Positions 5,044 through 30,609 of a stretch of DNA of 64,000 nucleotides are shown here, piece by piece (the first letter of the stretch is position 1; each line of letters begins with the position of its first letter). The position numbers and the translations under genes were made by a program. The stretch lies in the IMG/VR virus record IMGVR_UViG_3300029923_000009, one strand, 5' to 3'. The notes beneath the pieces were generated by a model. It did no database searches and was not told the origin of the DNA. It saw only the letters and a program-made list of their open reading frames with translations. Source of the stretch: a virus. Lineage: Duplodnaviria; Heunggongvirae; Uroviricota; Caudoviricetes.

Positions 5044-5057
5044 TACTCAATTGAGTA
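5044..5057. repeat. TACTCA-NN-TGAGTA palindrome (copy 1)
   Basis: TACTCAATTGAGTA; 27 nt before ATG 5084. Confidence 0.6.
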
Positions 5058-5083
5058 CTAAACAAATAATAAAATAAGTATAT

Positions 5084-5401
5084 ATGACAACAACTAAATT
5101 AAAAAAGTTTTTTGAGGAACATGAATATAATGTTGAGTTATTTAAACAGGATAATCAACAATGTGCAGAAATTGAAAGTTGGACAGATGGCGGTGTAGAT
5201 ATGATTATTACACTTCAACCATTCTCAATAGAAGAATTCATTAAATATGTTAATGATTTTAATATAGATGAAGAAATTGATTTGTACCGACAAGATAAAA
5301 GTTATAAAACTTCTTTTACTATCAGCGAAAGTGTTGCGGACTTTACAAAGTATTTAGAAGAATTGAAAAGTGTTGTAACTGAATTAGAAAATTTAAAATA
5401 A
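5084..5401 (+). CDS. hypothetical acidic protein (105 aa)
   Basis: ATG ORF; TACTCAATTGAGTA palindrome 27 nt upstream. Confidence 0.5.
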   Translation: MTTTKLKKFFEEHEYNVELFKQDNQQCAEIESWTDGGVDMIITLQPFSIEEFIKYVNDFNIDEEIDLYRQDKSYKTSFTISESVADFTKYLEELKSVVTELENLK

Positions 5402-5526
5402 ATATATGGGAACAGCAAGATTATTTCAAGTGGTAAATATGAGCGAAATAAGTAAACCCATAAACGAAATAGCATTTTGGAATAATAATGGGGATTATAT
5501 TTTTTTAAGAAAATAAGAATGATTGT

Positions 5527-5706
5527 ATGGGTGATAAAACATCAAAAGAATTTGCTAATACTACCACTATTGAGAATTTTGTTTTAACTATAGTTAATAA
5601 GGAATTACAAGATATGCTACCATCGTTTGATGTTAGTAAAAGTGGTTCACACATTTGGATTGAAGAAAAAACTTCAAAGACAAGAGTAATGTTGATAACA
5701 TTTTAA
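5527..5706 (+). CDS. hypothetical small protein (59 aa)
   Basis: ATG ORF absent from track (<60 aa); stop embedded in TTAACAAATTTC box. Confidence 0.35.
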   Translation: MGDKTSKEFANTTTIENFVLTIVNKELQDMLPSFDVSKSGSHIWIEEKTSKTRVMLITF

Positions 5707-5748
5707 CAAATTTCATTTCGGTATATCACTGTTAAGTATTATCTTTGT
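5703..5748 (+). promoter_or_regulatory. early-class promoter
   Basis: TTAACAAATTTCATTTC ... TATCTTTGT; the upstream box contains the stop of small ORF 5527-5706. Confidence 0.55.
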
Positions 5749-5785
5749 GTATCAATTAAAACAAATATTTATCCAATTAAAACAT

Positions 5786-6145
5786 ATGAATATGAAAACA
5801 GATTTAGAAATGACCCGTGAATTGAATGCGTTGGATATTCAGATTTATAAAATCAAAGGAACTGAAAGATTTGAAACGTGTACTCATGATTCTTATCGTT
5901 TGGAATTTGATTCAATCAAAGATGCTTATGATTACCATAAAGCAACTAATTTTTTGAATAAAGAACCAACAGCAAATGTAAAAAAATTCAAATTAGTAAT
6001 TACATCTGTATTTCATTTTCATGTTGAAATATTTGTTGATGATGAAATATTTTGTTGTAGTGATAGAAATATTTACAAATCGGAAATTATAAAAGCTATC
6101 AAGGAATATGAAGCCGAAGGATTTGTTTTGGTTGAATATTTTTAA
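5786..6145 (+). CDS. hypothetical protein (119 aa)
   Basis: Track start 5747 is GTG inside the -7 box; first ATG 5786 (alternative 5792). Confidence 0.5.
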   Translation: MNMKTDLEMTRELNALDIQIYKIKGTERFETCTHDSYRLEFDSIKDAYDYHKATNFLNKEPTANVKKFKLVITSVFHFHVEIFVDDEIFCCSDRNIYKSEIIKAIKEYEAEGFVLVEYF

Positions 6146-6187
6146 TAAATTCTATTTCCATATATCATAGTTAAAGCTTATCTTTAC
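6144..6187 (+). promoter_or_regulatory. early-class promoter (degenerate)
   Basis: TAATAAATTCTATTTCC ... TATCTTTAC. Confidence 0.4.
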
Positions 6188-6226
6188 ACTATCAATTAAT
6201 TATTTAATCAAATAAAAAACAGATAT

Positions 6227-6451
6227 ATGAATTCACGTGAAAATGAGATGAAGTTTTATAATTATATTATTGATAAGGCTATAGAATCAAAAGATGGTGG
6301 TGATTTAAAAGAATTACAGGAACTAATTCAATTATATTCTTTTGATGATATGTTAAGATATACTTTCCTTATGGGATTAATATATGGTGCGTTAATGCAA
6401 TTTAATAAAAAGATTGCTATTGAAGAATTACAGGAGTTTAAAAAGTTTTAA
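6227..6451 (+). CDS. hypothetical protein, paralog family A (74 aa)
   Basis: N-terminal half ~70% identical to 7026-7229 (NSxENExKFxNYIIDKxIxSxxGGDLKELQEL). Confidence 0.5.
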   Translation: MNSRENEMKFYNYIIDKAIESKDGGDLKELQELIQLYSFDDMLRYTFLMGLIYGALMQFNKKIAIEELQEFKKF

Positions 6452-6474
6452 CTTAAATAAATAAGTACATTGTT

Positions 6475-6726
6475 ATGAAGACCGAATATGAACAACTTAC
6501 AACAGCAAAGAAAAATATTGCAAAATCTTTGATTAAATACATAACTTTATCCAATAAACTTGGTCAACATGGAACACAAAGTATTGCTTTGATTGATGGT
6601 GTTTATGAAGCATATAACGTTACCAATATGAGTAGTGATGTGTTGGAGTTATTAATGAAGAGTTTAAATAATTGGCACGAGCAAAATGAGGAATTAAAAC
6701 GTATGTTCACACCACCAATTATTTAA
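6475..6726 (+). CDS. hypothetical protein (83 aa)
   Basis: ATG ORF. Confidence 0.5.
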   Translation: MKTEYEQLTTAKKNIAKSLIKYITLSNKLGQHGTQSIALIDGVYEAYNVTNMSSDVLELLMKSLNNWHEQNEELKRMFTPPII

Positions 6727-6768
6727 CAAATTTCATTTCCATATATCAGAGTTAAAGACTATCTTTGT
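6723..6768 (+). promoter_or_regulatory. early-class promoter
   Basis: TTAACAAATTTCATTTC ... TATCTTTGT. Confidence 0.55.
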
Positions 6769-6789
6769 ATTATAATTAAAACAAAATGT

Positions 6790-7029
6790 ATGATAAAAGA
6801 GGAATCAAATTATTTTAAATGTAAATCAACAGAATATTCTACATTTTTAAAAAATAGAATTTATCATAAAGATTTAATAGGTAAGTATCTAATATCAGAA
6901 CCAAATGATTGGGTATTAGTACCATCATATCCTACTTATCAAGAAATAATTGAAATAATTGAAATAGGTGATGATGTTCAAATTAAAAAATTATTGAAAT
7001 TATTAAAAATATGGAGAAAAGAATTATGA
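6790..7029 (+). CDS. hypothetical protein (79 aa)
   Basis: ATG ORF; early promoter 6723-6768. Confidence 0.5.
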   Translation: MIKEESNYFKCKSTEYSTFLKNRIYHKDLIGKYLISEPNDWVLVPSYPTYQEIIEIIEIGDDVQIKKLLKLLKIWRKEL

Positions 7030-7229
7030 ACTCATCAGAAAACGAAATAAAATTTTGTAATTATATTATTGATAAGGTTATAAAATCAAATGGCGGTGGT
7101 GATTTAAAAGAATTACAGGAACTAGTTCAGGCAGATACAGTTGGAATTTCTCCCGAATATTCAGAAGTTTACACAAAGGAAATATCAATATCTTTCGATG
7201 GTGATGAGTTGGTTAAGAATAATTTATAA
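7026..7229 (+). CDS. hypothetical protein, paralog family A (67 aa)
   Basis: Start moved to ATG 7026 (ATGA overlap), which aligns with the paralog at 6227. Confidence 0.5.
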   Translation: MNSSENEIKFCNYIIDKVIKSNGGGDLKELQELVQADTVGISPEYSEVYTKEISISFDGDELVKNNL

Positions 7230-7235
7230 ATAAAT

Positions 7236-7251
7236 ATACTCATTTGAGTAT
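7236..7251. repeat. TACTCA-NN-TGAGTA palindrome (copy 2)
   Basis: ATACTCATTTGAGTAT; 22 nt before ATG 7273. Confidence 0.6.
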
Positions 7252-7272
7252 CTAATAAATACATTTAATACA

Positions 7273-7752
7273 ATGGAAAATTCAATTAAAATATACGATG
7301 GTTTTATTGCAGATAAAAATACTGAACTACACTATGACCTTGAACGCTTAGACGAGTGGTTCGATCATTGTCCTGTTGAGGGTATAAGTAATTATCGTTC
7401 CGATAAAAGTTGTTTAAATCATTGGAGAATTATTGATAACGGAGAGTTTTTTACTATCATTAGTAAACCTAATTTTACAGAGGGTAAGTGCGATTATTAT
7501 AAACGGCTTGTGATTTGTAAACTTGTTAAAGATGATATGTGGAAGTACATAAACAAATTTAATTTAAGTCCTTGTATTTATAAGTTTGGTGAGGATGACC
7601 AATTTGAAAATTTTCCTGTAGATGAAGAAACATTAATTATATTAAGTGGATTTTCAGAAATTGTGATGGATTTGTTTGTTGAAGACAGTGAATCGTGTGA
7701 AAAATTATTAGACGTAATAAATATTAAAAATTTATATTATCATGAAAAATGA
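7273..7752 (+). CDS. hypothetical protein (159 aa)
   Basis: ATG ORF; ATACTCA-TT-TGAGTAT palindrome 22 nt upstream. Confidence 0.55.
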   Translation: MENSIKIYDGFIADKNTELHYDLERLDEWFDHCPVEGISNYRSDKSCLNHWRIIDNGEFFTIISKPNFTEGKCDYYKRLVICKLVKDDMWKYINKFNLSPCIYKFGEDDQFENFPVDEETLIILSGFSEIVMDLFVEDSESCEKLLDVINIKNLYYHEK

Positions 7753-7936
7753 ACAACAAATAAGAGATACCCGAAATGATACGGATGATAAGCTAATAAA
7801 AGTGTTAGAATATTTTTTATCATTGCATGAAGCGGATGAAATATTCAATATGATAAATGACCCACAATTTGAAGTTGATGATGTCATTGAACTATTGGAA
7901 AAATATGAAACTGATTATAAAAACGATATAGAATAA
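7742..7936 (+). CDS. hypothetical acidic protein (64 aa)
   Basis: ATG ORF overlapping upstream gene by 11 nt. Confidence 0.45.
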   Translation: MKNEQQIRDTRNDTDDKLIKVLEYFLSLHEADEIFNMINDPQFEVDDVIELLEKYETDYKNDIE

Positions 7937-7960
7937 AAATTAATTAAAATATTAAAAATT

Positions 7961-8242
7961 ATGGAAGTATTAGGATTTGTAGTGTTATTAATTATATTAG
8001 TTGGGTTGGGTTATTGGTTGGTTTATGATGGTCGTAATTTTAATACGATTACTCTTGTGTCTATAATATTTTCAATGTCAAGTTTTTGTTTATTTTTAAT
8101 ACCAAATAAATTAGGATATGAAAGAGGTCAAATTGATGCATTAAAAGGGAATATGCAATACGAGATGAAAATAAGTTATAAGATGGTTGATTCAGTATAT
8201 ATACCTATTGACACAGTTTATGTACTTAAAAATAATAAATAA
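7961..8242 (+). CDS. small membrane protein (93 aa)
   Basis: two hydrophobic helices near N-terminus. Confidence 0.5.
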   Translation: MEVLGFVVLLIILVGLGYWLVYDGRNFNTITLVSIIFSMSSFCLFLIPNKLGYERGQIDALKGNMQYEMKISYKMVDSVYIPIDTVYVLKNNK

Positions 8243-8259
8243 GTATATAATTATTTTAT

Positions 8260-8305
8260 TTAACAGATTATATTTTAGAATGTCAGTGTTAAACCATATC
8301 TTTGT
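8260..8305 (+). promoter_or_regulatory. early-class promoter
   Basis: TTAACAGATTATATTTT ... TATCTTTGT. Confidence 0.5.
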
Positions 8306-8325
8306 ATTATAAAAAATAAATAATT

Positions 8326-8715
8326 ATGGAAAAAGAATTTGTAACGTATGAAATTGCTTTACTATTAAAAGAGTTGGGTTATATAGGTGATGATTGTTTT
8401 GGGGTTTACATTAAAAGCATTATATCAAATGAGGGTGTTTTGGTTAATTTTGCTACCGATGATTTGAATGGTATAGATTTAGTTGGTGAAGTAAATGCCC
8501 CACTATGGCAACAGGTTATTAATTGGCTTAGGGAAAAGCATAATTATAATATTACATATAATGTATTGGAAGGGTATGATTGTAAAAAAATTATAAATTA
8601 TATTTTTAAGGGTGGTGATATTCAGTCACATTTTAAAATACTATCAAAAAAATCAGATTATTACGAGGCTCGTGAATCTGCTATTTTAAAAGTAATAGAT
8701 TTAATAAAAAAATAA
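8326..8715 (+). CDS. hypothetical protein, paralog family B (129 aa)
   Basis: Shares MxKxFVxYEIAxxLKELGF...APLWQQVINWLRxKHN with 16822-17172 and 52847-53236. Confidence 0.55.
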   Translation: MEKEFVTYEIALLLKELGYIGDDCFGVYIKSIISNEGVLVNFATDDLNGIDLVGEVNAPLWQQVINWLREKHNYNITYNVLEGYDCKKIINYIFKGGDIQSHFKILSKKSDYYEARESAILKVIDLIKK

Positions 8716-8991
8716 ATGAAAGAGTTAAATTTAGAAATGGCTTTAGGTAGCGGTAAAAACAGATTTAGGTTATTAGCTTCAATGAATAGCACACCGTGGA
8801 TTTTCATGTGGTGCGATGAAGAAGATAATTTTCTTGGAATGTCGGGTTCAGATATTGATGAATATAAGTTTGATTATACTTTGGAAGAGTTACCAAAAAT
8901 GATTGATAATGCGCAGGATTGGCTTAATCGAGCTAAAAATGCAGAACATCCATGTGCTAATATTTCAAATATTTATGTAATGGCAATCTAA
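8716..8991 (+). CDS. hypothetical protein (91 aa)
   Basis: ATG ORF immediately after upstream stop. Confidence 0.5.
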   Translation: MKELNLEMALGSGKNRFRLLASMNSTPWIFMWCDEEDNFLGMSGSDIDEYKFDYTLEELPKMIDNAQDWLNRAKNAEHPCANISNIYVMAI

Positions 8992-9011
8992 TTAAATACA
9001 AAAATAAATAT

Positions 9012-9057
9012 AAATGCAATCAATTAACATATTCTGTTTTGGTTGCATTTCTTTTTT
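9012..9057 (+). terminator. rho-independent terminator
   Basis: AAATGCAA ... TTGCATTT stem followed by CTTTTTT. Confidence 0.5.
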
Positions 9058-9060
9058 ATG

Positions 9061-9069
9061 TATCTTTGT
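9061..9069 (+). promoter_or_regulatory. -7 box TATCTTTGT
   Basis: Directly after terminator 9012-9057. Confidence 0.4.
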
Positions 9070-9098
9070 ATATCAAATAATTTAAAAGATAAGTGGGT

Positions 9099-9638
9099 AT
9101 GAAAACTGAATCAATGACGGCAAGTGAATTTTCTAAATTAGTTTATTGTGGATGTTTACCAAAAGAAAATTATGTTAATGATTTAAAACAAATTAAATAT
9201 TTCAGTTATGATGATTTTGGCTGTCATTTTTATGGAAGTAAAGAATATAATGATTCGTTGGTGTTCGTGGTTTGTTATGATGAAGAACATATTTATGGAG
9301 TTACCAAATTTGCCTATTTTTCAAATGAAGAACACTATTCAATTTCTTATTGTTCAACAAATAAAAACTATTTAAATAAAGGTATTTGTTCTAAAATGGT
9401 TGATTTATTCACTTCTTATTTTTCACATAAATACAGTAAAGAAATTTTATATGTTTCACAATATTCGGTAAGCGGTTGGAAGTATTTAAGACCATTATTA
9501 TTAAATTTATGTAAACAAAAAGATATTTCTTTCAGAGATAATATTATTGGATATATGGATGATGATGCAAAATATAGTGATGAGTATTATACACTAAGGG
9601 ATATATCTATTAAAATAGTAGGGGAAAGGTTTTATTAA
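9099..9638 (+). CDS. hypothetical protein (179 aa)
   Basis: Track start 9093 is GTG; ATG at 9099; terminator plus TATCTTTGT upstream. Confidence 0.55.
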   Translation: MKTESMTASEFSKLVYCGCLPKENYVNDLKQIKYFSYDDFGCHFYGSKEYNDSLVFVVCYDEEHIYGVTKFAYFSNEEHYSISYCSTNKNYLNKGICSKMVDLFTSYFSHKYSKEILYVSQYSVSGWKYLRPLLLNLCKQKDISFRDNIIGYMDDDAKYSDEYYTLRDISIKIVGERFY

Positions 9639-9644
9639 CAAATT

Positions 9645-9680
9645 ACATTTTCAAATATAATTATTTTGATATATCTTTGT
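9645..9680 (+). promoter_or_regulatory. early-class promoter
   Basis: TTAACAAATTACATTTTC ... TATCTTTGT. Confidence 0.5.
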
Positions 9681-9707
9681 AGTATGAATTTTAAATGATA
9701 AACAATT

Positions 9708-10226
9708 ATGAATGTAGAAATTAAGAATATTAAAATCAGTTTAGGCAATAGTGACGAAACTTATTGTTTCAATGCCGATATTTATGCTGACGGTAAAAAA
9801 GTTGGATATGCAAAAAACAATGGTCGTGGTGGAAATACCGATTATAATAGATACCCTAAATTTAGCTATGATGATATTCGTGATATTGAAAATTATTTTA
9901 AGTCAATGCCTTGTAAAGAATATACATTAAATAATGAAATTTTTAAAATGAATTATTCACTTGAAAATTTTATTGATGAAGCAGTTGAAAAAAAATTGGC
10001 TGAAAGGGATGCTGCGAGATTGAAAAATAGAATGGAAAAGGATTTCCAAAAATATATTTGTTACAAAGTTGAAAATGGATGGAATTCAACGGGTTGGAAA
10101 AATTATACTATAACTCAAATGTTGGGTACACCAGTTGGTATGTCATTGATTCAAAAGACCGTTGATACATTAAAAGAAAAAGGCGAAAAGATTTTAAATA
10201 ATAATTTAATTGGTATAAAATTATAA
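9708..10226 (+). CDS. hypothetical protein (172 aa)
   Basis: ATG ORF; early promoter 9645-9680. Confidence 0.55.
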   Translation: MNVEIKNIKISLGNSDETYCFNADIYADGKKVGYAKNNGRGGNTDYNRYPKFSYDDIRDIENYFKSMPCKEYTLNNEIFKMNYSLENFIDEAVEKKLAERDAARLKNRMEKDFQKYICYKVENGWNSTGWKNYTITQMLGTPVGMSLIQKTVDTLKEKGEKILNNNLIGIKL

Positions 10227-10232
10227 AATATT

Positions 10233-10430
10233 ATGGAAATTGAACAATGGATTTGTATTGGTATTATTGTATTAGCTTTATTATGTTTAATAACTAAAGT
10301 GATTTATAGGTGGATAGTTATTGGTAACCTGTTATGTGCTTTAGGTCTTCATGATTTTGGAGATTCACAAAGTGGTGTAATGTTCAGTAATATAACTTGT
10401 AACAGATGCGGGCATACAGACATTGAATAA
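10233..10430 (+). CDS. small membrane protein (65 aa)
   Basis: hydrophobic N-terminus; CNRCGH at C-terminus. Confidence 0.45.
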   Translation: MEIEQWICIGIIVLALLCLITKVIYRWIVIGNLLCALGLHDFGDSQSGVMFSNITCNRCGHTDIE

Positions 10431-10486: not shown

Positions 10487-10516
10487 AAAATTAAAACAAT
10501 TTAAATAAAAAACATT

Positions 10517-11640: not shown

Positions 11641-12111
11641 ATGAAAAAGCAAATTATGTTTGAGGGTATGAGTTTCAACGAGGGAACGCCAAAATCTGTG
11701 ATGGAAATATTACACGCAACCAATGAATACGGTTGGAGAATTAGATTGTGGTACGGTGATGATGATGGAAAAAGTTGGAATGAGGAAAATGATATTATTG
11801 GTAAGGTTGGTAAATCAACAGGAACAAAATGTCCACTACTAATTAATAATAGCAGGTCATTAGGTGGCGGTATTATTTTATCAGACTGTATTGTTAAGAT
11901 TGTGGATGTGGTAACAAAGGAAGTATTATATCAACATCGTACTTTTAATCAGTCAAAATTTGAAGCGGTTGGTAATTCGGTGGTTGTTGATGGTAAGGTA
12001 TGGGGTAAAGAATTAACTGATTTGGATCAACCTAAATACGCTAATTGTAAAAACTTTCAACAGGCTTACAGATTAGCAGCATTTATGAATGGTGAGCGAA
12101 TGTCTAAATAA
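11641..12111 (+). CDS. hypothetical protein (156 aa)
   Basis: ATG ORF 3 nt after upstream stop. Confidence 0.55.
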   Translation: MKKQIMFEGMSFNEGTPKSVMEILHATNEYGWRIRLWYGDDDGKSWNEENDIIGKVGKSTGTKCPLLINNSRSLGGGIILSDCIVKIVDVVTKEVLYQHRTFNQSKFEAVGNSVVVDGKVWGKELTDLDQPKYANCKNFQQAYRLAAFMNGERMSK

Positions 12112-12112: not shown

Positions 12113-12130
12113 AATACTCAAATGAGTATT
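12113..12130. repeat. TACTCA-NN-TGAGTA palindrome (copy 3)
   Basis: AATACTCAAATGAGTATT; 18 nt before ATG 12148. Confidence 0.6.
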
Positions 12131-12147: not shown

Positions 12148-12435
12148 ATGAAAAAGAAAAAAGAATTAATAATAACAATCGATGATATTAGTAGAAGTGC
12201 TTGGCTTCAGCAGGGTTATAATTGGGATAGTATTTCTATTGAAAAAATAACTGAAAAAATATTAGCCGATGAGGATTGTTATAATTTTTCAAGAAATCTT
12301 GAGGATAATGGTGTTGTAAATGATTATATTAACACTGAATATATGGGATATTTAATATTTCATTGCCTTGTAACTTTATCAAATGAAGACTTAGTAAATG
12401 GGATTAACAACGCTTTAAAACAATTATTAAAATAA
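12148..12435 (+). CDS. hypothetical protein (95 aa)
   Basis: ATG ORF; AATACTCA-AA-TGAGTATT palindrome 18 nt upstream. Confidence 0.5.
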   Translation: MKKKKELIITIDDISRSAWLQQGYNWDSISIEKITEKILADEDCYNFSRNLEDNGVVNDYINTEYMGYLIFHCLVTLSNEDLVNGINNALKQLLK

Positions 12436-12446
12436 ATATAAATAAT

Positions 12447-12680
12447 ATGAAAAAATTAACATCGTTATTAGAAGCATTTCACGCAATGTTGAACGAAGAT
12501 ACATTTGCTTTGAGCGAAGATGTACTTAAAATAGTTGTAGAAGAACAGGGGTATCAGGTAACTGAAAATGAATTTACCATTCAATCAATTGAACGTGATG
12601 GTCGTATATCATTGTATTGTCAAAGTTGTTCGGATGTTATTTATGATTTTGAGGTTTATCAATTAGAAAAAATTAACTAA
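12447..12680 (+). CDS. hypothetical protein (77 aa)
   Basis: ATG ORF. Confidence 0.5.
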   Translation: MKKLTSLLEAFHAMLNEDTFALSEDVLKIVVEEQGYQVTENEFTIQSIERDGRISLYCQSCSDVIYDFEVYQLEKIN

Positions 12681-12718
12681 TTCCATTTTCATAAGTAAAT
12701 AATAAATATTATCTTTGT
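12672..12718 (+). promoter_or_regulatory. early-class promoter (variant)
   Basis: TTAACTAATTCCATTTTC ... TATCTTTGT. Confidence 0.5.
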
Positions 12719-12749
12719 ACTGTAATTAAAAACATAAAAAATTATTACC

Positions 12750-12962
12750 ATGATAAACATAAATGATAGAGAAAAATATTTAGAAAGCAAACTACCTAAA
12801 AATGTTGATATTGAAGCAAAGTATAGAAAAAATTTCGAAAGGTATGCTACCTATTTAGGTAATGGAATATATCAATGGAAAGGTATTACCGCTACAGATA
12901 CCGCTTTGTTATTTCTTATGGGTGTTCTAAGAAGTGAAAATATAAATTTTAAAGAAATTTAA
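12750..12962 (+). CDS. hypothetical protein (70 aa)
   Basis: ATG ORF; early promoter 12672-12718. Confidence 0.45.
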   Translation: MININDREKYLESKLPKNVDIEAKYRKNFERYATYLGNGIYQWKGITATDTALLFLMGVLRSENINFKEI

Positions 12963-12977
12963 TATATTATAATTAAT

Positions 12978-13232
12978 ATGAAAACAGAAATTAAAAAAAG
13001 AACATTTGAGGCTTCAAAATTTCCAAAAGGAAGTGATGAGAGAGCTAAACTAAATTGCGATCCTTTAACAAGTGAATACATGACAAGTTATAAATATACT
13101 TTATATATTTATAAAGAACAAACGGTTACTTCGTTACCTATAATTCACACATATAATTTTAGGACTAAATCCGATGCAATGGATAAAGAAAAGTCCATAA
13201 TTGATAACCCATCTTATTACGAAGCTAAATAA
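12978..13232 (+). CDS. hypothetical protein (84 aa)
   Basis: ATG ORF. Confidence 0.45.
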   Translation: MKTEIKKRTFEASKFPKGSDERAKLNCDPLTSEYMTSYKYTLYIYKEQTVTSLPIIHTYNFRTKSDAMDKEKSIIDNPSYYEAK

Positions 13233-13249
13233 ATAAGCTAATATAAGTT

Positions 13250-13540
13250 ATGAAAACAATACAGTTAACAAATGCTGAAAAGGTACTTTTAAATAATGTG
13301 GTTGAGTATGAATATAATGGTGAAAAGCTTCAATCTACATTAGATGATATATTAAACGATATATTGCTATGTGCTGAAATGAAAGTTATTAATAATAAAC
13401 CTTATTTCTTTGTTCCTTTAAAAGTGGAAGACATTTATCATCCGTTAGATCAAAAATATTATAACATATTAGTTGAAAATGGTATTAATCCATTTGAATA
13501 TATGTTCGGAGATTACGGTATAGGTAAAATAATTAATTAA
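13250..13540 (+). CDS. hypothetical protein (96 aa)
   Basis: ATG ORF. Confidence 0.5.
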   Translation: MKTIQLTNAEKVLLNNVVEYEYNGEKLQSTLDDILNDILLCAEMKVINNKPYFFVPLKVEDIYHPLDQKYYNILVENGINPFEYMFGDYGIGKIIN

Positions 13541-22428: not shown

Positions 22429-23226
22429 ATGGAAAAAGTATTATTAAACTCATTGAAAATAGGTGATGAATTTCGGTTATTAAGCGAAAATGATACGCTA
22501 TATACAATTCGTGTTGTTGATAATGATAATCGTGTATTTGTTGATAGCAACGTGACGGCACTTTCAGAAATAAGAACTGAATATGTGTATGTTGATAATA
22601 AAATTAAAAAAGCATTGGAGTGGTGGAGTGGAATAACTAATACTATGAAAAAAGTTAATTTACAAGAAACATATATTGGTAATTGTAGTTTATTGAGAAC
22701 ATTAACAGATGGAGAAATAGTTTACATTTGGGAATCTGAAAATAACAAAAAAATAACACCAATTATCAAAAACGAAAAAATGTTGGATAAAATGGAAGAG
22801 TTCATGAGAGATTCAACATCAGAATCCATATTGGATGATTGTAAAAAATGGGGTATTCCTGTGGAAGATGTTATCGAGGAAAAACCAAAGTCAATTAATA
22901 ATATGGTGGAAGATTTAAAAGAATATTTCAGAATAACATCAAGAGAAAAGGTTTTGGAAGATTGGGCAAAATCTGCTGAATATGATAATGTTGGTGTATC
23001 TGTAAGTGAGTTTCTTGATGTACAGGAAAGTTACCAATATAAATATGTTTGGCTTAATTTAATCACAGGTGCGTTTACTATGTCATGGACAGAAGAGATT
23101 GAAAAATTATATGGTTGTGATGCTGAACTGCAAGAAAAAGCCAACAAAGACGGAATGAAACTTATCAAATACCAATGTGTTAACGACCATGAGTTTGAAT
23201 TTTATAATCAAATGAAACTTAGATAA
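22429..23226 (+). CDS. hypothetical protein (265 aa)
   Basis: long ATG ORF. Confidence 0.6.
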   Translation: MEKVLLNSLKIGDEFRLLSENDTLYTIRVVDNDNRVFVDSNVTALSEIRTEYVYVDNKIKKALEWWSGITNTMKKVNLQETYIGNCSLLRTLTDGEIVYIWESENNKKITPIIKNEKMLDKMEEFMRDSTSESILDDCKKWGIPVEDVIEEKPKSINNMVEDLKEYFRITSREKVLEDWAKSAEYDNVGVSVSEFLDVQESYQYKYVWLNLITGAFTMSWTEEIEKLYGCDAELQEKANKDGMKLIKYQCVNDHEFEFYNQMKLR

Positions 23227-23240: not shown

Positions 23241-23254
23241 TACTCAATTGAGTA
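23241..23254. repeat. TACTCA-NN-TGAGTA palindrome (copy 4)
   Basis: TACTCAATTGAGTA; 22 nt before ATG of small ORF 23276-23380. Confidence 0.55.
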
Positions 23255-23386
23255 CCTTAAAAAAACAAGCTAACTATGAATACTATAAAGTTATCAAAAA
23301 GACAAATAGAAATATTGGAATTGATTAATGATGATGGTTCAATAATTAAAATTAGTTGTATTACACCAATTAAAACAAATTAAATT

Positions 23387-23785
23387 ATGAAAACAAATTT
23401 GACCTTTTATTTGAACGATAAAGCGGAAACATGTATTACGACAATTTATGATTACCAAACAGCACCAATTTTTAAGAAAGGGTATAGGTTTTGGTTTTCA
23501 GTTTCGGATTTATACCCAAAGACAATATCAGAATTATCGAAAGAATATAAAACTACATTTGTTGATTCAATAATTGCTGATAATAAAGAAAAAATCAAAA
23601 ACTTTAATAATACTGAATTTAAGATTGTCTCAATATATTCTGAAATGAAATTTGATCAAAATTTATCTGAAAATCATCGAATGGTAATAGAATATAGATG
23701 TAAAAAAATAAAACATTTTTATTGGAGATTTTGGGATAGATATAAATTTAAACAGTTTTTTAATTTAAAAAATTATTTTAACTAA
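23387..23785 (+). CDS. hypothetical basic protein (132 aa)
   Basis: ATG ORF. Confidence 0.5.
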   Translation: MKTNLTFYLNDKAETCITTIYDYQTAPIFKKGYRFWFSVSDLYPKTISELSKEYKTTFVDSIIADNKEKIKNFNNTEFKIVSIYSEMKFDQNLSENHRMVIEYRCKKIKHFYWRFWDRYKFKQFFNLKNYFN

Positions 23786-23813
23786 ATCAACTTGCTTTAT
23801 AAATAAAATGTTA

Positions 23814-23825
23814 GTACATTTGTAC
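23814..23825 (+). promoter_or_regulatory. class-II promoter core GTACATTTGTAC
   Basis: TACATTTG fits TAnnTTTG; 21 nt before ATG 23846. Confidence 0.45.
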
Positions 23826-23845
23826 AAAAAAATTATAATTAATAT

Positions 23846-24939: not shown

Positions 24940-24955
24940 TTAAAATCAAAATAAT

Positions 24956-25123: not shown

Positions 25124-25283
25124 ATAATATGAGAAAAATATATATGGTACAGACTTTGAACTTTATAGCTCAAACAAATGTGGATTTTGTAAATGATATA
25201 CTTAAAAATTCAACTCAACAACAGTTGAAAGATGATACGTATTATTTTGTTATGAATTAATTAACAATCAAAATTTTATTGTT

Positions 25284-25541
25284 ATGGCGAATGATTATTT
25301 TAACTATGAACCTACAGCTATTGAATTGAACGAATTCAAAATGGTTAATTCAGGCTATATAAAGCCACCTAAACCATTTGAAATTATCAAACCTACTCAC
25401 GGTTCACTTGTATTAATAGAGGGTAATAATCGAACGATAATAAAGAATAATTTACCAATACCTTTATTACAACATATAAGAAGTAAAATGATAAAAAATT
25501 GTTATAAAAAGAAAAATTTAAAAATAGAACATATAATTTAA
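25284..25541 (+). CDS. hypothetical protein (85 aa)
   Basis: ATG ORF. Confidence 0.45.
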   Translation: MANDYFNYEPTAIELNEFKMVNSGYIKPPKPFEIIKPTHGSLVLIEGNNRTIIKNNLPIPLLQHIRSKMIKNCYKKKNLKIEHII

Positions 25542-25554
25542 AATAAATAAACAT

Positions 25555-25938
25555 ATGGAAATAATAAAAGTTATAATTTTATGGATACTTATAGATATTT
25601 CAATTATCTTAGTCATTATTGAAATTACGAATATATTGGTAAATGGCTATCATTTTATCCATGGAAATGGTGTGAATTTATTAATTGAAGAACTTGATGT
25701 TAGTACATCTTCAATTTTAAGTTCGATGATAGATTTAAAAGGAAAGTCAAGATTGAATGCGCAGTATATATCGAATTCAATGTCAACTTTAATCTTTCCT
25801 TATATTATTAGATGTGGAGAGTTAGGTGATAAAAGGACTACGTATATGATTATTAGGTGGACAAAATCTTATTATCTCATTAAGGATAAATACAAAGAGC
25901 TTTACCCGAAAAAAAAAAACAAACCAAAAATACATTAA
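25555..25938 (+). CDS. membrane protein (127 aa)
   Basis: N-terminal TM helix; followed by terminator 25953-25984. Confidence 0.5.
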   Translation: MEIIKVIILWILIDISIILVIIEITNILVNGYHFIHGNGVNLLIEELDVSTSSILSSMIDLKGKSRLNAQYISNSMSTLIFPYIIRCGELGDKRTTYMIIRWTKSYYLIKDKYKELYPKKKNKPKIH

Positions 25939-25952
25939 ATTTTAGTTGATTT

Positions 25953-25984
25953 AACCACATTATATTTTATTTTGTGGTTTTTTA
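25953..25984 (+). terminator. rho-independent terminator
   Basis: AACCACA ... TGTGGTT followed by TTTTT. Confidence 0.5.
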
Positions 25985-25991
25985 ATATATT

Positions 25992-26037
25992 TTAACAAAT
26001 TAAATTTTTACAAGTAAATGTTTTATAATATCTTTGT
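25992..26037 (+). promoter_or_regulatory. early-class promoter
   Basis: TTAACAAATTAAATTTTT ... TATCTTTGT. Confidence 0.5.
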
Positions 26038-26096
26038 TGCCTAATCAATAAATAAATAAATAAATGATTAATATTAAGTAAAAAAAATATACTGAT

Positions 26097-26444
26097 ATGG
26101 AAATAGAAATAGGTAAAAAATACAATTACTTTGATGATGGAAAAATATGGGAAAGTAGACGGTTGACTGTTGAAATTACAGAGATAATTCCATTTAAAGA
26201 TATTGATGATACAACACTTTGTATTTGGAAAAGTGAGGTTGAACAGTGTTATTGGTTATATTCTAAAGAAACAGACTATTTTGTTAAAGGACTTTTAGAA
26301 ACGGAATATATAGAAATAAAATACGAGGAAATTATTTTTGTTAGAACCTTAGATGGTGGATGGTTTAGTCTCGGATGGTGGGGTGGAAGATTAGATGTAG
26401 ATGGAAAACTTGCCATATTATCAAATAAGAACTCACAAAAATAA
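26097..26444 (+). CDS. hypothetical protein (115 aa)
   Basis: ATG ORF; early promoter 25992-26037. Confidence 0.5.
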   Translation: MEIEIGKKYNYFDDGKIWESRRLTVEITEIIPFKDIDDTTLCIWKSEVEQCYWLYSKETDYFVKGLLETEYIEIKYEEIIFVRTLDGGWFSLGWWGGRLDVDGKLAILSNKNSQK

Positions 26445-26448
26445 TATT

Positions 26449-26673
26449 ATGACGGAAGAAGAAAAATGGTGTCGGCGTTTAAAACGTGTAGTTGATAATA
26501 TGCCCGAAACTTTAGAGGTTTGTATATGTCTAGGTACTATTAATGTTTATTCAAATGGATCTATTCGTAGAAGTTTTGAACAAAGTGGTGATGCAGATGA
26601 AGTTGGTAAATATTCAGAATTTAATTTCACAATTTATGATACAGGGTTCTATGGAAACGAAGAAAGCATTTAA
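26449..26673 (+). CDS. hypothetical protein (74 aa)
   Basis: Track start 26401 overlaps the upstream gene by 44 nt; ATG 26449 is just after its stop. Confidence 0.45.
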   Translation: MTEEEKWCRRLKRVVDNMPETLEVCICLGTINVYSNGSIRRSFEQSGDADEVGKYSEFNFTIYDTGFYGNEESI

Positions 26674-26687
26674 TAAAATATATTAAT

Positions 26688-27116
26688 ATGGAAGACATTT
26701 TTAGAATAGTTACAAAAGCATTTGGTAATAAAGTTGATAAGGGTGGAAGTCCATATGTTTACCATCTAAATAGGGTTGCCGATAAAGTGATGGTCTATTA
26801 TAGCGAAGATTATGAGTTAAAAGAAGCTGCTTTTTGTTATGATCTTTTGGAAGACATAAAAGGTTGGACACCTGAAAAGTTGGGTGAATATGTAAGTCCT
26901 CGTGTTGTTAATTTAGTTAGTATTTTAACGCATAAAGAATATGAACCATATAAAGATTATATTGATAGGGTTGCAATGGATAAGGATGCTATTAAGATTA
27001 AATTAGCTGACTTAGAGGACAATATGGATATTACAAGATTACCTGAATTGACTGAAAAGGACATTGTGCGTTTAAAGAAATACCACAAGTACTACATTTA
27101 CTTAAAAAATTTATAG
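26688..27116 (+). CDS. RelA/SpoT-like HD-domain protein with degenerate HD motif (142 aa)
   Basis: GGSPYVYHLNRVA, AAFCYDLLED and IKLADLEDNM align to the (p)ppGpp-hydrolase HD-domain blocks (SGEPYIxHPLxVA / ALLHDVVED / KLADRLHNM), but the HD dyad reads YD. Confidence 0.55.
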   Translation: MEDIFRIVTKAFGNKVDKGGSPYVYHLNRVADKVMVYYSEDYELKEAAFCYDLLEDIKGWTPEKLGEYVSPRVVNLVSILTHKEYEPYKDYIDRVAMDKDAIKIKLADLEDNMDITRLPELTEKDIVRLKKYHKYYIYLKNL

Positions 27117-27119
27117 AAT

Positions 27120-27338
27120 ATGAAAGTAACACAAAACGGGCTACAGGAATTTCCAGAAGAGAGTGGTTTAATAATGGATGATATTATTAATTTAATGAAT
27201 TTAATAAATAAAAAAGATGGCCATTTGGGTGACATAGTTTCTTGTATTAGAACGACATGTTCAAGCCTGAAATTAAAAGCAGATAAATTATCAAAAATAT
27301 TTGAAGAACAAAAATATGAGACTAATAAAAATAACTAA
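27120..27338 (+). CDS. hypothetical protein (72 aa)
   Basis: ATG ORF. Confidence 0.45.
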   Translation: MKVTQNGLQEFPEESGLIMDDIINLMNLINKKDGHLGDIVSCIRTTCSSLKLKADKLSKIFEEQKYETNKNN

Positions 27339-27624
27339 ATATCTTAGTGCTAGAAGTTTTGATCACTATGTTGTTATATATGATGATTCAAAAACTGTAT
27401 CGGAAATCGATGAAATAGTGGAAGACTGGGGACAGTCCAACCCATCAGGTTCTAATAATGGATATAATCTTAATTGGTCATTTATTGAGGATGAAAAACT
27501 AATTGAAGATTCTTTTCTAAAAGAACTTAAAAGAATATTATTAGATATTGATGAATTACAGAAAAAAGAAATTGAATTGTATACGTATTTTAAATCAATA
27601 AAAGTAAAAGATGTAGAATCATGA
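27316..27624 (+). CDS. hypothetical protein (102 aa)
   Basis: Track start 27301 is TTG; ATG 27316. Confidence 0.45.
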   Translation: MRLIKITKYLSARSFDHYVVIYDDSKTVSEIDEIVEDWGQSNPSGSNNGYNLNWSFIEDEKLIEDSFLKELKRILLDIDELQKKEIELYTYFKSIKVKDVES

Positions 27625-27809
27625 AAAAGAAAGTAAACCTTAAAGATCCTGAAACGGACGAAATTATTGCACAGGTAAATTTACTGACAATTGATTGGTA
27701 TGACGACCTTATACCGACTTGGGAATATTTTTTAGAACAGGTTGGTGGAAATATTGAGGATTTTATAGAATATGTTAATGAAACTACAAACTTAAAAATA
27801 AGCAAATAA
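27621..27809 (+). CDS. hypothetical acidic protein (62 aa)
   Basis: ATGA overlap. Confidence 0.45.
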   Translation: MKKKVNLKDPETDEIIAQVNLLTIDWYDDLIPTWEYFLEQVGGNIEDFIEYVNETTNLKISK

Positions 27810-27810
27810 A

Positions 27811-28008
27811 ATGCAAAAAATAAATAATTTAATAGAAGATTATCAGAGACGAAGTTCAAATATTGAAAGTCAATTAAAATCTTCTAAATGTAAAGAAGAT
27901 AATGTTAATATTAATCGTTTGAGTGCTAAACTTCATTGTTATAAAACGTTTGTAGTTGAACTAGAACGTTTGGTTGATGAAATTAATGAGAAAAATCAAC
28001 GAATTTAA
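27811..28008 (+). CDS. hypothetical protein (65 aa)
   Basis: ATG ORF. Confidence 0.45.
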   Translation: MQKINNLIEDYQRRSSNIESQLKSSKCKEDNVNINRLSAKLHCYKTFVVELERLVDEINEKNQRI

Positions 28009-28043
28009 TTGTTAATTTATTTTGTTAATCCAATACCTTTACG

Positions 28044-28052
28044 TATCTTTGT
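28044..28052 (+). promoter_or_regulatory. -7 box TATCTTTGT
   Basis: 30 nt before ATG 28082. Confidence 0.4.
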
Positions 28053-28081
28053 ATTAGAAATTTAAAGAAGAAAATTATATT

Positions 28082-28411
28082 ATGGAAACAACATTTAGTA
28101 CGATTAATTTTATTGAACCTACGGATGAGTTCAAAAAAGAATTTTTCGATGTTTTGAATATTAAGGAATTTTTTAATATGGACTTAATTGCTTATTCTTT
28201 TTATTATAAAGATGTTTTAAAAGATAATAACCTTAAATTAGATGAACTCGAAAGATCTTTTAATGGGTATGTAAAATTTTATAATTTACAGTATTCATTA
28301 TTAGAAATCTATGAAATGTTCAAAGATTGGACTGAAAATGATTTAACTAATTTCATGGCTTATTATAGACCAATTTTTTTAAAAAATAATAAAGATACAA
28401 ATGAACAATAA
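28082..28411 (+). CDS. hypothetical protein (109 aa)
   Basis: ATG ORF; -7 box 28044-28052. Confidence 0.5.
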   Translation: METTFSTINFIEPTDEFKKEFFDVLNIKEFFNMDLIAYSFYYKDVLKDNNLKLDELERSFNGYVKFYNLQYSLLEIYEMFKDWTENDLTNFMAYYRPIFLKNNKDTNEQ

Positions 28412-28733
28412 AGAATTTATATTATGTGCAGCTATTCATTATAAAAATGGTGCTGAAACAACCGTATATGGGGTTGAAGATGGTGTAATTGTTTGTGGGA
28501 GAAGACATGGAGATTGTTATGCTATTTTGAAAGGTATATTGAATATTGGTGATGATTATAATATTGATGATTTACCCGATAGAGATGAGCAGGGATTTTT
28601 AACATCTGAAAATAGGTTTGTTTCAAGACGTGAAGCGTGGTTTATAGCTAAAAAAAATAAACAAATTAGATTTGGGTTAGAAGCAACAGAGAATGGAGAA
28701 TTTAGTGAATTAATTTCCGAAAACTTATATTAA
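28401..28733 (+). CDS. hypothetical protein (110 aa)
   Basis: ATG ORF overlapping the upstream stop. Confidence 0.5.
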   Translation: MNNKEFILCAAIHYKNGAETTVYGVEDGVIVCGRRHGDCYAILKGILNIGDDYNIDDLPDRDEQGFLTSENRFVSRREAWFIAKKNKQIRFGLEATENGEFSELISENLY

Positions 28734-28747
28734 AATACTAATATTTT

Positions 28748-29026
28748 ATGAAAACAAATATTTTAGATAGAAGATTATCAGTCGAAGATCAAAGTGAAAT
28801 TTTAGAAACGTTGTTTTCTTTTAAATGTGTAAAAACGGATGAAAATGATGATAAACATGTTATTATCTACGATGAAGAGGGTTACGAATTTTATGGTAAT
28901 GATATTAACCTGAAATATGATTTAACAAATATTCGGGGAATTATATGGTATGCCAAAGACATATCAGCTTATAATGCTATTTGGGAACATAACACCAAAA
29001 TCAAAAATCTTTTAAATATAAGATAA
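28748..29026 (+). CDS. hypothetical protein (92 aa)
   Basis: ATG ORF. Confidence 0.5.
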   Translation: MKTNILDRRLSVEDQSEILETLFSFKCVKTDENDDKHVIIYDEEGYEFYGNDINLKYDLTNIRGIIWYAKDISAYNAIWEHNTKIKNLLNIR

Positions 29027-29027
29027 G

Positions 29028-29267
29028 ATGATGGAACAACAGAATATAATAAAAGGCAATAAAGTTAAATTTTACGATTGTTTTCAAGTTTCAATTGATA
29101 AAGATGCATCTGGAACTAATCCAAAACATTACCCTATTGGTATTGTCGATAAGGTTTATATCTATCACAGTATTTTTGGTTATTCTGATCAGGTTTGTGA
29201 CATTAAAATAGGTAATAGAATATCAAGAGCGCATTTCACTAATTGTGTTACCAAAATACCCAATTGA
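29028..29267 (+). CDS. hypothetical protein (79 aa)
   Basis: ATG ORF. Confidence 0.45.
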   Translation: MMEQQNIIKGNKVKFYDCFQVSIDKDASGTNPKHYPIGIVDKVYIYHSIFGYSDQVCDIKIGNRISRAHFTNCVTKIPN

Positions 29268-29269
29268 GT

Positions 29270-29503
29270 ATGCTGAAAAAGAAAAAACTCACAGTTAAAG
29301 AAAAACTGTTTAATGATATTGATAGTGTAATATCAATTAAACTTAGTTTAACGGGGCTTAAAGAGTTCGAAAACTATTTTAGAACCGAACTATTCACTGC
29401 AGGACCCGATCAATGGAATGAGCTTGAAATAGCTATTTGTGACTATAATATGAGAATACAAACTGAATTAGAAACCGAAATAAAAAAACTACTAATAAAA
29501 TGA
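29270..29503 (+). CDS. hypothetical protein (77 aa)
   Basis: Track start 29243 is TTG; ATG 29270. Confidence 0.45.
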   Translation: MLKKKKLTVKEKLFNDIDSVISIKLSLTGLKEFENYFRTELFTAGPDQWNELEIAICDYNMRIQTELETEIKKLLIK

Positions 29504-29793
29504 AAAATATAGAGAAAAAATATACAAAAGAAGAAATTCTTTTATTTAATGAAAATGATTGGGAGTTTGGTCGTAGTAGTGGCTATGCTGGTTATTATCG
29601 GAAAGGATCAGAATATTGTGATAAGGAATCTAATTGGATCTATGAACAAGATTATATGGATCGTAAAAATCTATTGGAAAAGTATTATGAAGATTATAAA
29701 CTACTTCACAATTTCAGACTTGAACAATTAGAATTTGGAAAATACCCCGACTACATCATTCAAGATTTTTTAAACAACAAATATTTTAAATAA
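29500..29793 (+). CDS. hypothetical protein (97 aa)
   Basis: ATGA overlap. Confidence 0.5.
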   Translation: MKNIEKKYTKEEILLFNENDWEFGRSSGYAGYYRKGSEYCDKESNWIYEQDYMDRKNLLEKYYEDYKLLHNFRLEQLEFGKYPDYIIQDFLNNKYFK

Positions 29794-29803
29794 ACAATAT
29801 TAT

Positions 29804-29959
29804 ATGGTATTATTCATTTTAATTTTAGGTTTAATTCTTAATATTTTGAGTGTTTATGTTGATATTAAGAAAAAATATTACTATGTTCTTATATTAAACG
29901 CAATTGCGGTTGTTTTAATATCTTTTGCTATTATTAATCACTTCTTTAAAATTATATAA
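29804..29959 (+). CDS. hypothetical small membrane protein (51 aa)
   Basis: ATG ORF absent from track; two hydrophobic segments. Confidence 0.35.
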   Translation: MVLFILILGLILNILSVYVDIKKKYYYVLILNAIAVVLISFAIINHFFKII

Positions 29960-29963
29960 ATAT

Positions 29964-30308
29964 ATGAAACTAAGCGAAATTCACAATGGTTTAGAAAACC
30001 AAAATATTAGAGAAATGTTATCAAAAAAAATAGGTGATTTGGTTTTTAATTTACCACAAAAAATACAGGTAGATAATAAACTATATATTCTTGATTGGTC
30101 AATTAAAAATGAAGAGGCTGAAATAGCCTATCATACGGAATTATTAAATAAAACAAAAGAAAAACAAGCCTGTAGATTACTAATTAAAATGATGGGTTGG
30201 GAGGAATATGATGTTTCGGATTACACACAATTGGATTTACCTAATTGGATTAACTTTATTGGAACTGAAAACGAATATCATAACCTTTTAAAACAATTAA
30301 ACGTATGA
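29964..30308 (+). CDS. hypothetical protein (114 aa)
   Basis: Track start 29925 is TTG; ATG 29964. Confidence 0.5.
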   Translation: MKLSEIHNGLENQNIREMLSKKIGDLVFNLPQKIQVDNKLYILDWSIKNEEAEIAYHTELLNKTKEKQACRLLIKMMGWEEYDVSDYTQLDLPNWINFIGTENEYHNLLKQLNV

Positions 30309-30592
30309 TATTAATGTATATTTTCGCTGGATTAGTATTATTGTGTGCCATAGCCTCTGGTGTTATGGTTGATAACGATAACAAAAATGGTAAATATAAT
30401 ACGGCTATGATAGTATTTGTGATTATGCTTCTTTTTTCGGTAATTGTTGGTGGAATAACATCAAAAACATCATATAAGGATGGCTTTGAAAAAGGATACC
30501 AAAAAGGTCAAGTTGACTACCAAAAAGGCAAAATAGAATATAAGGTGGAAATCAAACAAGTAACCGATACAATTATATCAAAAGCTAATTAA
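30305..30592 (+). CDS. small membrane protein (95 aa)
   Basis: ATGA overlap; two TM helices. Confidence 0.5.
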   Translation: MILMYIFAGLVLLCAIASGVMVDNDNKNGKYNTAMIVFVIMLLFSVIVGGITSKTSYKDGFEKGYQKGQVDYQKGKIEYKVEIKQVTDTIISKAN

Positions 30593-30595
30593 TAA

Positions 30596-30609
30596 TACTC
30601 AAATGAGTA
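30596..30609. repeat. TACTCA-NN-TGAGTA palindrome (copy 5)
   Basis: TACTCAAATGAGTA; 18-27 nt before ATG 30627/30636. Confidence 0.6.

Follow-up and report, generated by a model that had tools for sequence, protein, structure and literature searches.

In the 64,000-nucleotide stretch of Caudoviricetes DNA held as IMG/VR record IMGVR_UViG_3300029923_000009, hereafter called the window, a 14-nucleotide (nt) palindrome of the form TACTCA-WW-TGAGTA (TACTCANNTGAGTA), made of 6+6 half-sites around a 2-nt centre, recurs in short gaps between genes, after the stop codon of one and before the start codon of the next. The reading that we prefer, and put forward tentatively, is that of a multi-copy DNA operator which would act as an intra-operon roadblock or silencer for distal genes that have no promoter of their own. 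An exact scan of the window gave six matches, and not one of 100 dinucleotide-preserving shuffles contained any (expected count 0), which rejects a chance origin of the palindrome. The six exact copies and one copy with a single mismatch are placed as follows, with distances to the flanking open reading frames (ORFs).

5044..5057, + strand: palindrome TACTCAATTGAGTA, between ORF 4447-5037 (stop 6 nt upstream) and ORF 5084-5401 (ATG 26 nt downstream)
7237..7250, + strand: palindrome TACTCATTTGAGTA, between ORF 7011-7229 (stop 7 nt upstream) and ORF 7273-7752 (ATG 22 nt downstream)
12115..12128, + strand: palindrome TACTCAAATGAGTA, between ORF 11641-12111 (stop 3 nt upstream) and ORF 12148-12435 (ATG 19 nt downstream)
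23241..23254, + strand: palindrome TACTCAATTGAGTA, between ORF 22429-23226 (stop 14 nt upstream) and the 35-codon ORF 23276-23383 (ATG 21 nt downstream), after which comes ORF 23387-23785
30596..30609, + strand: palindrome TACTCAAATGAGTA, between ORF 30305-30592 (stop 3 nt upstream) and ORF 30627-31109 (ATG 17 nt downstream)
58856..58869, + strand: palindrome TACTCATTTGAGTA, within ORF 58632-58904 (in its final 49 nt) and upstream of ORF 58923-59186 (ATG 53 nt downstream)
29257..29270, + strand: 1-mismatch copy TACCCAATTGAGTA, overlapping a stop/start junction (stop of ORF 29028-29267, next ATG at 29270)

An earlier note, made from the letters of this DNA without database searches, had described the recurrent palindrome with five intercistronic copies and one intragenic copy at 58856, and had held that far fewer than one copy should occur by chance; the scan and the shuffles bear out both statements. 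Four of its coordinates (5044, 23241, 30596 and 58856) were right, and the copies that it placed at 7236 and 12113 in fact start at 7237 and 12115. The source is a jumbo phage of about 263 kb, since the same DNA, 100% identical, was found once on a 263,276-bp contig. When the window was extended by 9.7 kb upstream and 9.5 kb downstream by means of contigs encoding its terminal proteins, to 83 kb in total, two more intergenic near-copies were found at window positions -7021 and -2001, both of them TACTCGTTTGAGTA. These two and the six exact copies make up the eight good copies on which the counts below are based. The copy at 29257 is not among them; its mismatch destroys the hairpin that the palindrome can form (0 kcal/mol), and it is probably degenerate or non-functional.

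The core is strictly kept. All 12 of its positions are identical among the six exact copies, and the sole change tolerated in the two upstream near-copies is an A to G at position 6. The centre is always A/T but its orientation is not fixed, reading AT, TT, AA, AT, AA and TT in the order of the copies. Moreover, no other 6+6 palindrome recurs in the window.

The placement of the copies is equally regular. For the five intercistronic copies in the window the distance from the preceding stop is 3-14 nt and that to the following ATG 17-26 nt. When all good copies are considered, seven of the eight are wholly intergenic, with ranges of 3-33 nt after the stop and 17-30 nt before the ATG, in a sequence of which only 12% is intergenic (P = 2.6e-6 for at least seven of eight, and P = 1.4e-4 for at least five of the six exact copies). 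The association with stops and starts that the earlier note had pointed out is therefore non-random; its start distance of 18-27 nt was right as to proximity, and the measured range is 17-26 nt. The gaps that bear a copy measure 34-75 nt (34-49 nt inside the window), carry neither a promoter nor a T-run, and look like the usual minimal spacer of 20-30 nt with the 14-mer added.

Most of the larger gaps of the window hold instead the highly conserved early cassette TTAACAAATTTCATTT...TATCTTTGTAT, also written TTAACAAATTYCATTT-N(~20)-TATCTTTGTAT, which recurs every 1-3 genes (1094-1174, 1538-1612, 3590-3657, 4342-4446, 5707-5785 and about 40 further gaps) and which, by its agreement with the established consensus, is the Bacteroidetes sigma-A promoter with its -33 and -7 (TAnnTTTG) elements. 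There are 58 intergenic TAnnTTTG boxes in the extended 83 kb, and each copy of the palindrome lies between one such box 330-2550 nt upstream and the next box downstream. The box that heads the operon holding the first copy is the following.

4391..4398, + strand: -7 box TAnnTTTG of a host-type early promoter, within the cassette TTAACAAATTCCATTT...TATCTTTGTA, upstream of copy 5044

The gene 3' of each palindrome has no promoter of its own, and the copy thus sits inside a promoter-delimited operon; that no early promoter cassette occurs in the copy-bearing gaps had already been stated in the earlier note and was confirmed here. We rejected the palindrome as a host sigma-A promoter because neither the -33 TTTG nor the -7 TAnnTTTG is found in its gaps. 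An intrinsic terminator was rejected as well, given the weak stem (two of five pairs G-C, -3.4 kcal/mol), the A-rich downstream flank and the lack of a T-run; canonical terminators with hairpin and T-run do occur at other places in the window, such as 2890-3037 and 33043-33137. The genes flanking the copies are orphans without informative domains and are not paralogous to one another, on which grounds a duplicated gene cassette was rejected. A homing-endonuclease target or a restriction site was also dropped, because such sites do not occur as palindromes in many copies between genes, and restriction sites are depleted in phages, not enriched.

The sequence around the core adds a direction to an otherwise symmetric element. 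An A stands at -1 in all eight good copies and a C at +1 in six of them (P = 2e-5), while +1 and +2 are pyrimidines in all eight (P = 7e-6) and are followed by T-A-A. Copy 5044, for example, has A at -1 and CTAAA at +1 to +5, and three copies have the longer flank CCTAAAA in common. These asymmetric flanks indicate a functional unit of about 20 nt, A-TACTCR-WW-TGAGTA-YYTAA, oriented with transcription. As RNA, the core can be folded into a 5-bp stem with a 4-nt loop of -3.4 kcal/mol (-4 to -6 kcal/mol with the flanks), and in other phages in which the palindrome is lengthened to 8-11 bp the values reach -9 to -22 kcal/mol. The view of the earlier note that a 2-nt centre precludes a stable RNA hairpin is not supported in view of this fold; the argument against any hairpin is invalid, though the hairpin of the window copies is weak. 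Nevertheless an unvarying core together with an A/T centre in either orientation points to sequence-specific recognition rather than to a generic hairpin, and the invariance of the core favours a DNA site because a hairpin alone would tolerate compensatory change.

The palindrome is also present in other phages. IMG/VR was scanned for two centre variants, which gave mostly single chance matches and several multi-copy contigs, none of them similar to the window at the DNA level. Several of these multi-copy contigs are AT-rich and measure 92-367 kb, and their copies are again intergenic, directly after stops and/or before starts. Promoters of the TATCTTTG type are also found in two of them, namely contig 3300045988_176087 (lineage A) and contig L092 (lineage F). 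Lineage A has a few accessory genes in common with the window, including the gene 3' of copy 5044; outside the window this gene has homologues in two motif-bearing contigs, one of them with a copy at its 3' end. In contig 176087 the palindrome is lengthened to ATG-core-CAT, and copies either precede separate -7-like boxes, at distances that vary, or stand 17-20 nt ahead of an ATG. Two further copies of this contig lie between convergent gene ends with no start codon nearby, an arrangement that fits a roadblock and neither a promoter nor a translational operator. Of the four copies in the 367-kb contig L124, two follow an intrinsic terminator at a distance of 4 nt, with the next ATG 23-59 nt downstream of the palindrome. 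In contig L076, six copies of GGTACTNATTTGAGTAC are arrayed over about 150 bp of a divergent intergenic region (6539-6690), adjoining a gene for a 239-aa protein with a weak match to HTH_36 (5583-6302, - strand) and cytosine methylase fragments; this array looks like a cluster of operators or iterons.

Two control palindromes of the same composition, scanned likewise, gave multi-copy stretches in 7 of 240 cases (2/120 and 5/120, one of them with four copies) versus 13 of 240 for the real motif, and seven of these 13 stretches have three or more copies. The recurrence across lineages is real but only modestly above background. The use of this recurrence as proof of a common system is weakened by the two controls.

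The closest sequence precedent comes from the Streptomyces phage phiC31 (NC_001978), in which TACTCACGTGAGTA (TACTCA-CG-TGAGTA) occurs 15 times exactly and once more with one mismatch. Fourteen of the 15 exact copies and the 1-mismatch copy fall between genes, at 8-92 nt from the preceding stop and 9-395 nt from the following start, and the remaining exact copy lies inside the repressor gene. We take this palindrome to be the operator of the c repressor, the "conserved inverted repeats" (CIRs) of phiC31, and these repeats were reportedly shown in 1994 and 1995 to be bound by that protein. Phage TG1 has ACTCACGTGAGT, with C/G at the outer position, and this form only, 11 times. In a metagenomic group related to phiC31 and TG1, with 62-63% G+C, the copies read GGACC-TACTCAATTGAGTA-GGTCC with AT as centre, and the centre dinucleotide is therefore free in this group (CG in phiC31 and TG1, AT in the metagenomic relative). 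The phiC31 copies often lie within longer palindromes (tcaaCC…GGttga), and one is found in a terminator stem at 34783.

The window resembles phiC31 in having identical half-sites and spacing, TACTCA-N2-TGAGTA, and many dispersed copies, nearly all of them between stop and start in co-directional operons. It differs in that its centre is A/T, its flank is asymmetric and holds no CC/GG or longer palindrome, and its promoters are of the Bacteroidetes rather than the Streptomyces type. Moreover phiC31 is a 41-kb temperate siphovirus, whereas the phage described here has about 263 kb and looks lytic. A chance match of the 6-bp half-site and the spacing has a probability of about 1e-3 per comparison. 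However, no protein is common to the actinophage loci and the AT-rich loci, so the match with phiC31 may be due to convergence or chance, and homology of the two systems is not established.

Short dispersed sites are known from other phages too. In phiC31 and mycobacteriophage L5 taken together 18-30 dispersed repressor-binding sites are reported, without the sequence of the site being stated, and those of L5 block elongation (PMC4557955). The stoperators of L5 and Cluster A, described also for phage R4, are many copies of a short site, which in L5 forms a block to elongating RNA polymerase (PMC4557955; PMC10276819). The palindrome resembles them in lying in short intergenic gaps inside operons, away from promoters, but the L5 sites are asymmetric 13-mers, monomer-bound and in one orientation, whereas here the core is a perfect palindrome and only the flanks are oriented. 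Cluster O mycobacteriophages and Microbacterium phages of Cluster EG, which are lytic, carry 8-10 copies of 17-18-bp inverted repeats with a variable centre 14-22 bp before starts (PMC7302621). These too are multi-copy inverted repeats in short gaps, as are the copies found here 17-30 nt before the ATG; the class is defined by arrangement alone, the EG sequence (GATCAACCNNGGTTGATC) is unrelated, the hosts are actinobacteria, and there is no evidence of a common origin. The C-box of C.PvuII (ACTCATAGT) was rejected as a match because its spacing differs, and a literature search for the palindrome sequence gave no relevant match. Dispersed intergenic palindromes are thus already known in actinophages (the phiC31 CIRs, the L5/R4 stoperators and the Cluster O/EG repeats), and we found no description of them for a phage of this kind.

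Based on these observations we suggest that the palindrome would be a double-stranded DNA recognition site for a symmetric, presumably dimeric, sequence-specific protein, most likely encoded by the phage. The site is placed directly after a stop codon, inside an early operon run by a host sigma-A-type promoter, and just outside the translation-initiation region of the next gene, itself promoter-less. The bound protein may then block or modulate the read-through of RNA polymerase into the distal genes. The site would thus serve as a roadblock or silencer, comparable to the stoperators of mycobacteriophage L5 and to the repressor sites scattered over phiC31, and would put these genes under a temporal control of their own. 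That DNA rather than RNA is the target, that a protein binds it and that binding acts as a roadblock are all points which we infer. We favour a DNA operator because of the invariant core, the orientation-free A/T centre, the precedent of phiC31 and the array beside a helix-turn-helix (HTH) gene in contig L076, and also because the geometry varies, with copies between convergent genes and beside terminators and promoters. The suggestion of the earlier note that the palindrome is a binding site for a dimeric protein gains support on the first four of these grounds, in the form of a recognition site for a symmetric protein.

Several results weigh against this reading. We could not find a candidate binder. 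The searches for it reached 83 kb of the approximately 263-kb genome, and within this scope Pfam (E<=1e-3) gave for the 150 window proteins no HTH, repressor, sigma, RNA polymerase, Cas6, ParB or other DNA-binding family; the small HTH or RegA-like protein whose presence the earlier note had proposed to check was likewise not seen among them. The phiC31 repressor family PF25746 was not detected in the same proteins at the same threshold, a phmmer search with the phiC31 c protein gave no match at E<=10, and the best 25 PHROGs families included no regulator. PF25746 was also not matched in the other AT-rich motif loci, and by tblastn this family was found in Streptomyces phages only. A binder shared across lineages was rejected, since all-against-all BLAST gave no family common to the actinophage and AT-rich loci. 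The asymmetric flank is another difficulty, as a symmetric dimer leaves it unexplained and it suggests a directional role at the transcription or RNA level; the one-sided A...CYTAA favours such a role. The A6 to G change was seen four times in three lineages (this phage, lineage A and L076), each time on the 5' half as read, which is the coding strand in this phage and in lineage A. Moreover a lysogeny-type repressor is not expected in a phage of lytic appearance, and the control palindromes mentioned above also gave multi-copy stretches.

What was found among the 150 window proteins by Pfam consists of RNA-repair enzymes, phosphoesterases, GmrSD_N, HATPase_c_3 and zinc-finger or homing-endonuclease-like proteins. 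A 710-aa DUF8224 protein was considered as the binder and rejected, since the match of the L076 HTH protein to it is weak and outside the HTH and it has no similarity to phiC31 c. The 35-codon ORF 23276-23383 reads MNTIKLSKRQIEILELINDDG…, like the start of a winged-helix/HTH protein; it is far too short and has no Pfam match.

A possible, if somewhat doubtful, alternative is an element of the mRNA, that is a small hairpin (5-bp stem, RWWU tetraloop) after the upstream stop, recognised by a sequence-specific RNA-binding protein or by an endoribonuclease of the Cas6/Csy4 type or a similar one, which would cut or protect the polycistronic early transcript and so uncouple the stability or translation of the distal genes. 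The hairpin can form, with the energies given above for the core, for the flanked copies and for the other lineages; the conserved flank A...CYTAA is one-sided and oriented with transcription; the only tolerated change, A6 to G, falls in the would-be loop, always in the 5' half as read; and placement after the stop is as consistent as placement before the start. Moreover the window is rich in RNA-repair genes, and contig L092 encodes at 2420-3103 (- strand) a protein with a Cas6 C-terminal domain (E = 1.8e-10) and a G-rich loop GLGKCTGFGFG, 750 nt from a copy of the palindrome. Short hairpins of conserved sequence between transcript units are indeed what the palindrome has in common with CRISPR-repeat/Cas6 (Csy4-type) sites, but it differs from these in its weaker stem, in the lack of a repeat-spacer array and in the lack of a Cas6 in the window. 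There is no covariation, as the stem is identical everywhere, and it is weak for AT-rich mRNA; the loop has no fixed sequence, being AA or TT on the coding strand according to the copy. Furthermore, no Cas6 or other RNA-binding family is found in the 150 window proteins, no homologue of the L092 protein is encoded in the extended window, and we take the identical palindrome of phiC31 to be a DNA operator. The earlier note had also considered an RNA-level translational operator of the RegA type, which is not supported: between the end of the site and the AUG there are 17-30 nt (once 53 nt), with no overlap with the ribosome-binding region, and the two copies between convergent ends in contig 176087, which shares the promoter type and several genes, are at odds with it.

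We consider it unlikely that the palindrome with its 3' flank is a promoter or promoter core, which a phage-encoded sigma factor or RNA polymerase would read, perhaps in the form of an extruded DNA hairpin like that used by the N4 virion RNA polymerase, and which would give a middle-class start inside early operons like the middle promoters of T4. Every window copy does precede a + strand gene without a sigma-A promoter, the directional YYTAA 1-5 nt past the palindrome could be a -10-like or start-site element, the A6 to G change is strand-consistent, and the two L124 copies 4 nt past an intrinsic terminator lie where a start signal is needed. Nevertheless the copies have no Bacteroidetes -33/-7 element, the implied leaders would measure only about 5-20 nt, the Pfam search of the window gave neither an RNA polymerase nor a sigma family, and a perfect palindrome would be unusual for a promoter. 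In contig 176087, moreover, the -7-like boxes are separate from the copies and follow them at varying distances, and two copies lie between convergent ends. The alternative promoter proposed in the earlier note is likewise held to be unlikely (no -33/-7 element, and copies of related contigs upstream of separate -7-like boxes or after terminators) and is kept here as a rival. Quite unlikely, in our view, is that the copies are junction or recombination marks of shuffled cassettes, such as moron boundaries or a duplicated mini-element, or parS-like genome-organisation sites recognised by a ParB-type protein; under either view, regulating genes would not be their main function. The genes beside the copies are orphans or have homologues scattered over unrelated phages, that after copy 5044 recurs in two motif-bearing contigs, once with a copy at its 3' end, the CCTAAAA flank is common to three copies, and neither phi4:1 nor a 42-kb stretch of LR756500 has the motif, all of which would suit such marks. 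However, these genes are not paralogous to each other, the Pfam search of the window gave no recombinase, transposase or ParB, and the strict confinement to stop-to-start gaps is left unexplained.

Returning to the DNA operator, the strongest form of this reading would be that a dispersed-operator system in the style of phiC31, with the same DNA code (TACTCA-N2-TGAGTA), exists in large, lytic-looking phages with Bacteroidetes-type promoters, where it would time the distal genes of early operons and not lysogeny. We regard this form as improbable. If it were true, either a DNA-recognition module would have moved between actinophages and these phages and diverged too far for detection by sequence, or a widely conserved factor that has so far gone unrecognised would read the palindrome. 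To our knowledge almost nothing has been described of regulation beyond the host -33/-7 promoter in phages with Bacteroidetes-type promoters, and a single invariant site splitting early operons would be a direct handle on how a 263-kb phage sub-divides its early transcription. The half-site match with phiC31 is unexpected; if it is not due to chance it links a classical Streptomyces immunity system to unrelated phages, and if it is, the palindrome is one more start-associated intergenic palindrome, as in several phage groups.

The window has 26% G+C with all genes on the + strand, and its DNA is 100% identical in many metagenome assemblies, so that strain variation could provide no footprint of the site. 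Its 710-aa DUF8224 protein shows 56% identity with a protein of Cellulophaga phage phi4:1 and 62% identity with a protein of an uncultured phage of 462 kb; a protein-level search for relatives in viral and metagenome contigs found none. The motif has no copy in phi4:1, the closest cultured relative, or in 42 kb of LR756500, for which reason it was rejected as a trait of the whole phage lineage. Rfam and tRNA searches gave no known RNA family or tRNA.

A second promoter-like class was observed, with an upstream part …ACTTG… and the -7 box GTACATTTGTA. It lies mostly in the 24-56 kb region, which has larger genes, and may represent a different temporal class.

23786-23845, 37735-37888, 41082-41371, 45051-45140 and 55320-55391: upstream part and GTACATTTGTA of the second promoter-like class

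The RNA-repair genes form, with other nucleic-acid enzymes, a cluster at 47313-63271, which besides the RNA ligase and RlaP listed below encodes an FGase, two Metallophos proteins, HAD_SAK_2 and a LigT/2'-5' ligase-like protein, as well as zinc-finger proteins (DUF723/DUF4379 and DUF7487) that are homing-endonuclease-like. Two other genes with recognisable domains lie further upstream.

31653-32501: GmrSD_N
36151-37734: 527-aa HATPase_c_3 protein
47313-48344: RNA ligase
62135-63271: RlaP

Some further features were noted in the other motif-bearing contigs. In L124 the palindrome is followed within 5-30 nt by a second repeat, GATCGGAATAATAT, at 2005-2060, 6401-6425 and 9941-9985, once inside a hairpin. 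The end of contig L092 (1-305) is a tandem repeat with a period of 81 nt containing a 42-nt unit. Contig L074 has two matches to TnpB/OrfB_IS605 (Cas12f-like TNB), presumably in the ORFs at 4009-5175 and 12295-13458 (- strand, inferred by size), and a resolvase match was also found among the AT-rich contigs with the motif. Finally, about 2.5 kb past the right end of the window, the sole minus-strand gene called nearby (7421-7735 of contig L381) encodes a T5orf172/MUG113 protein, GIY-YIG-like, and is probably a mobile insertion.

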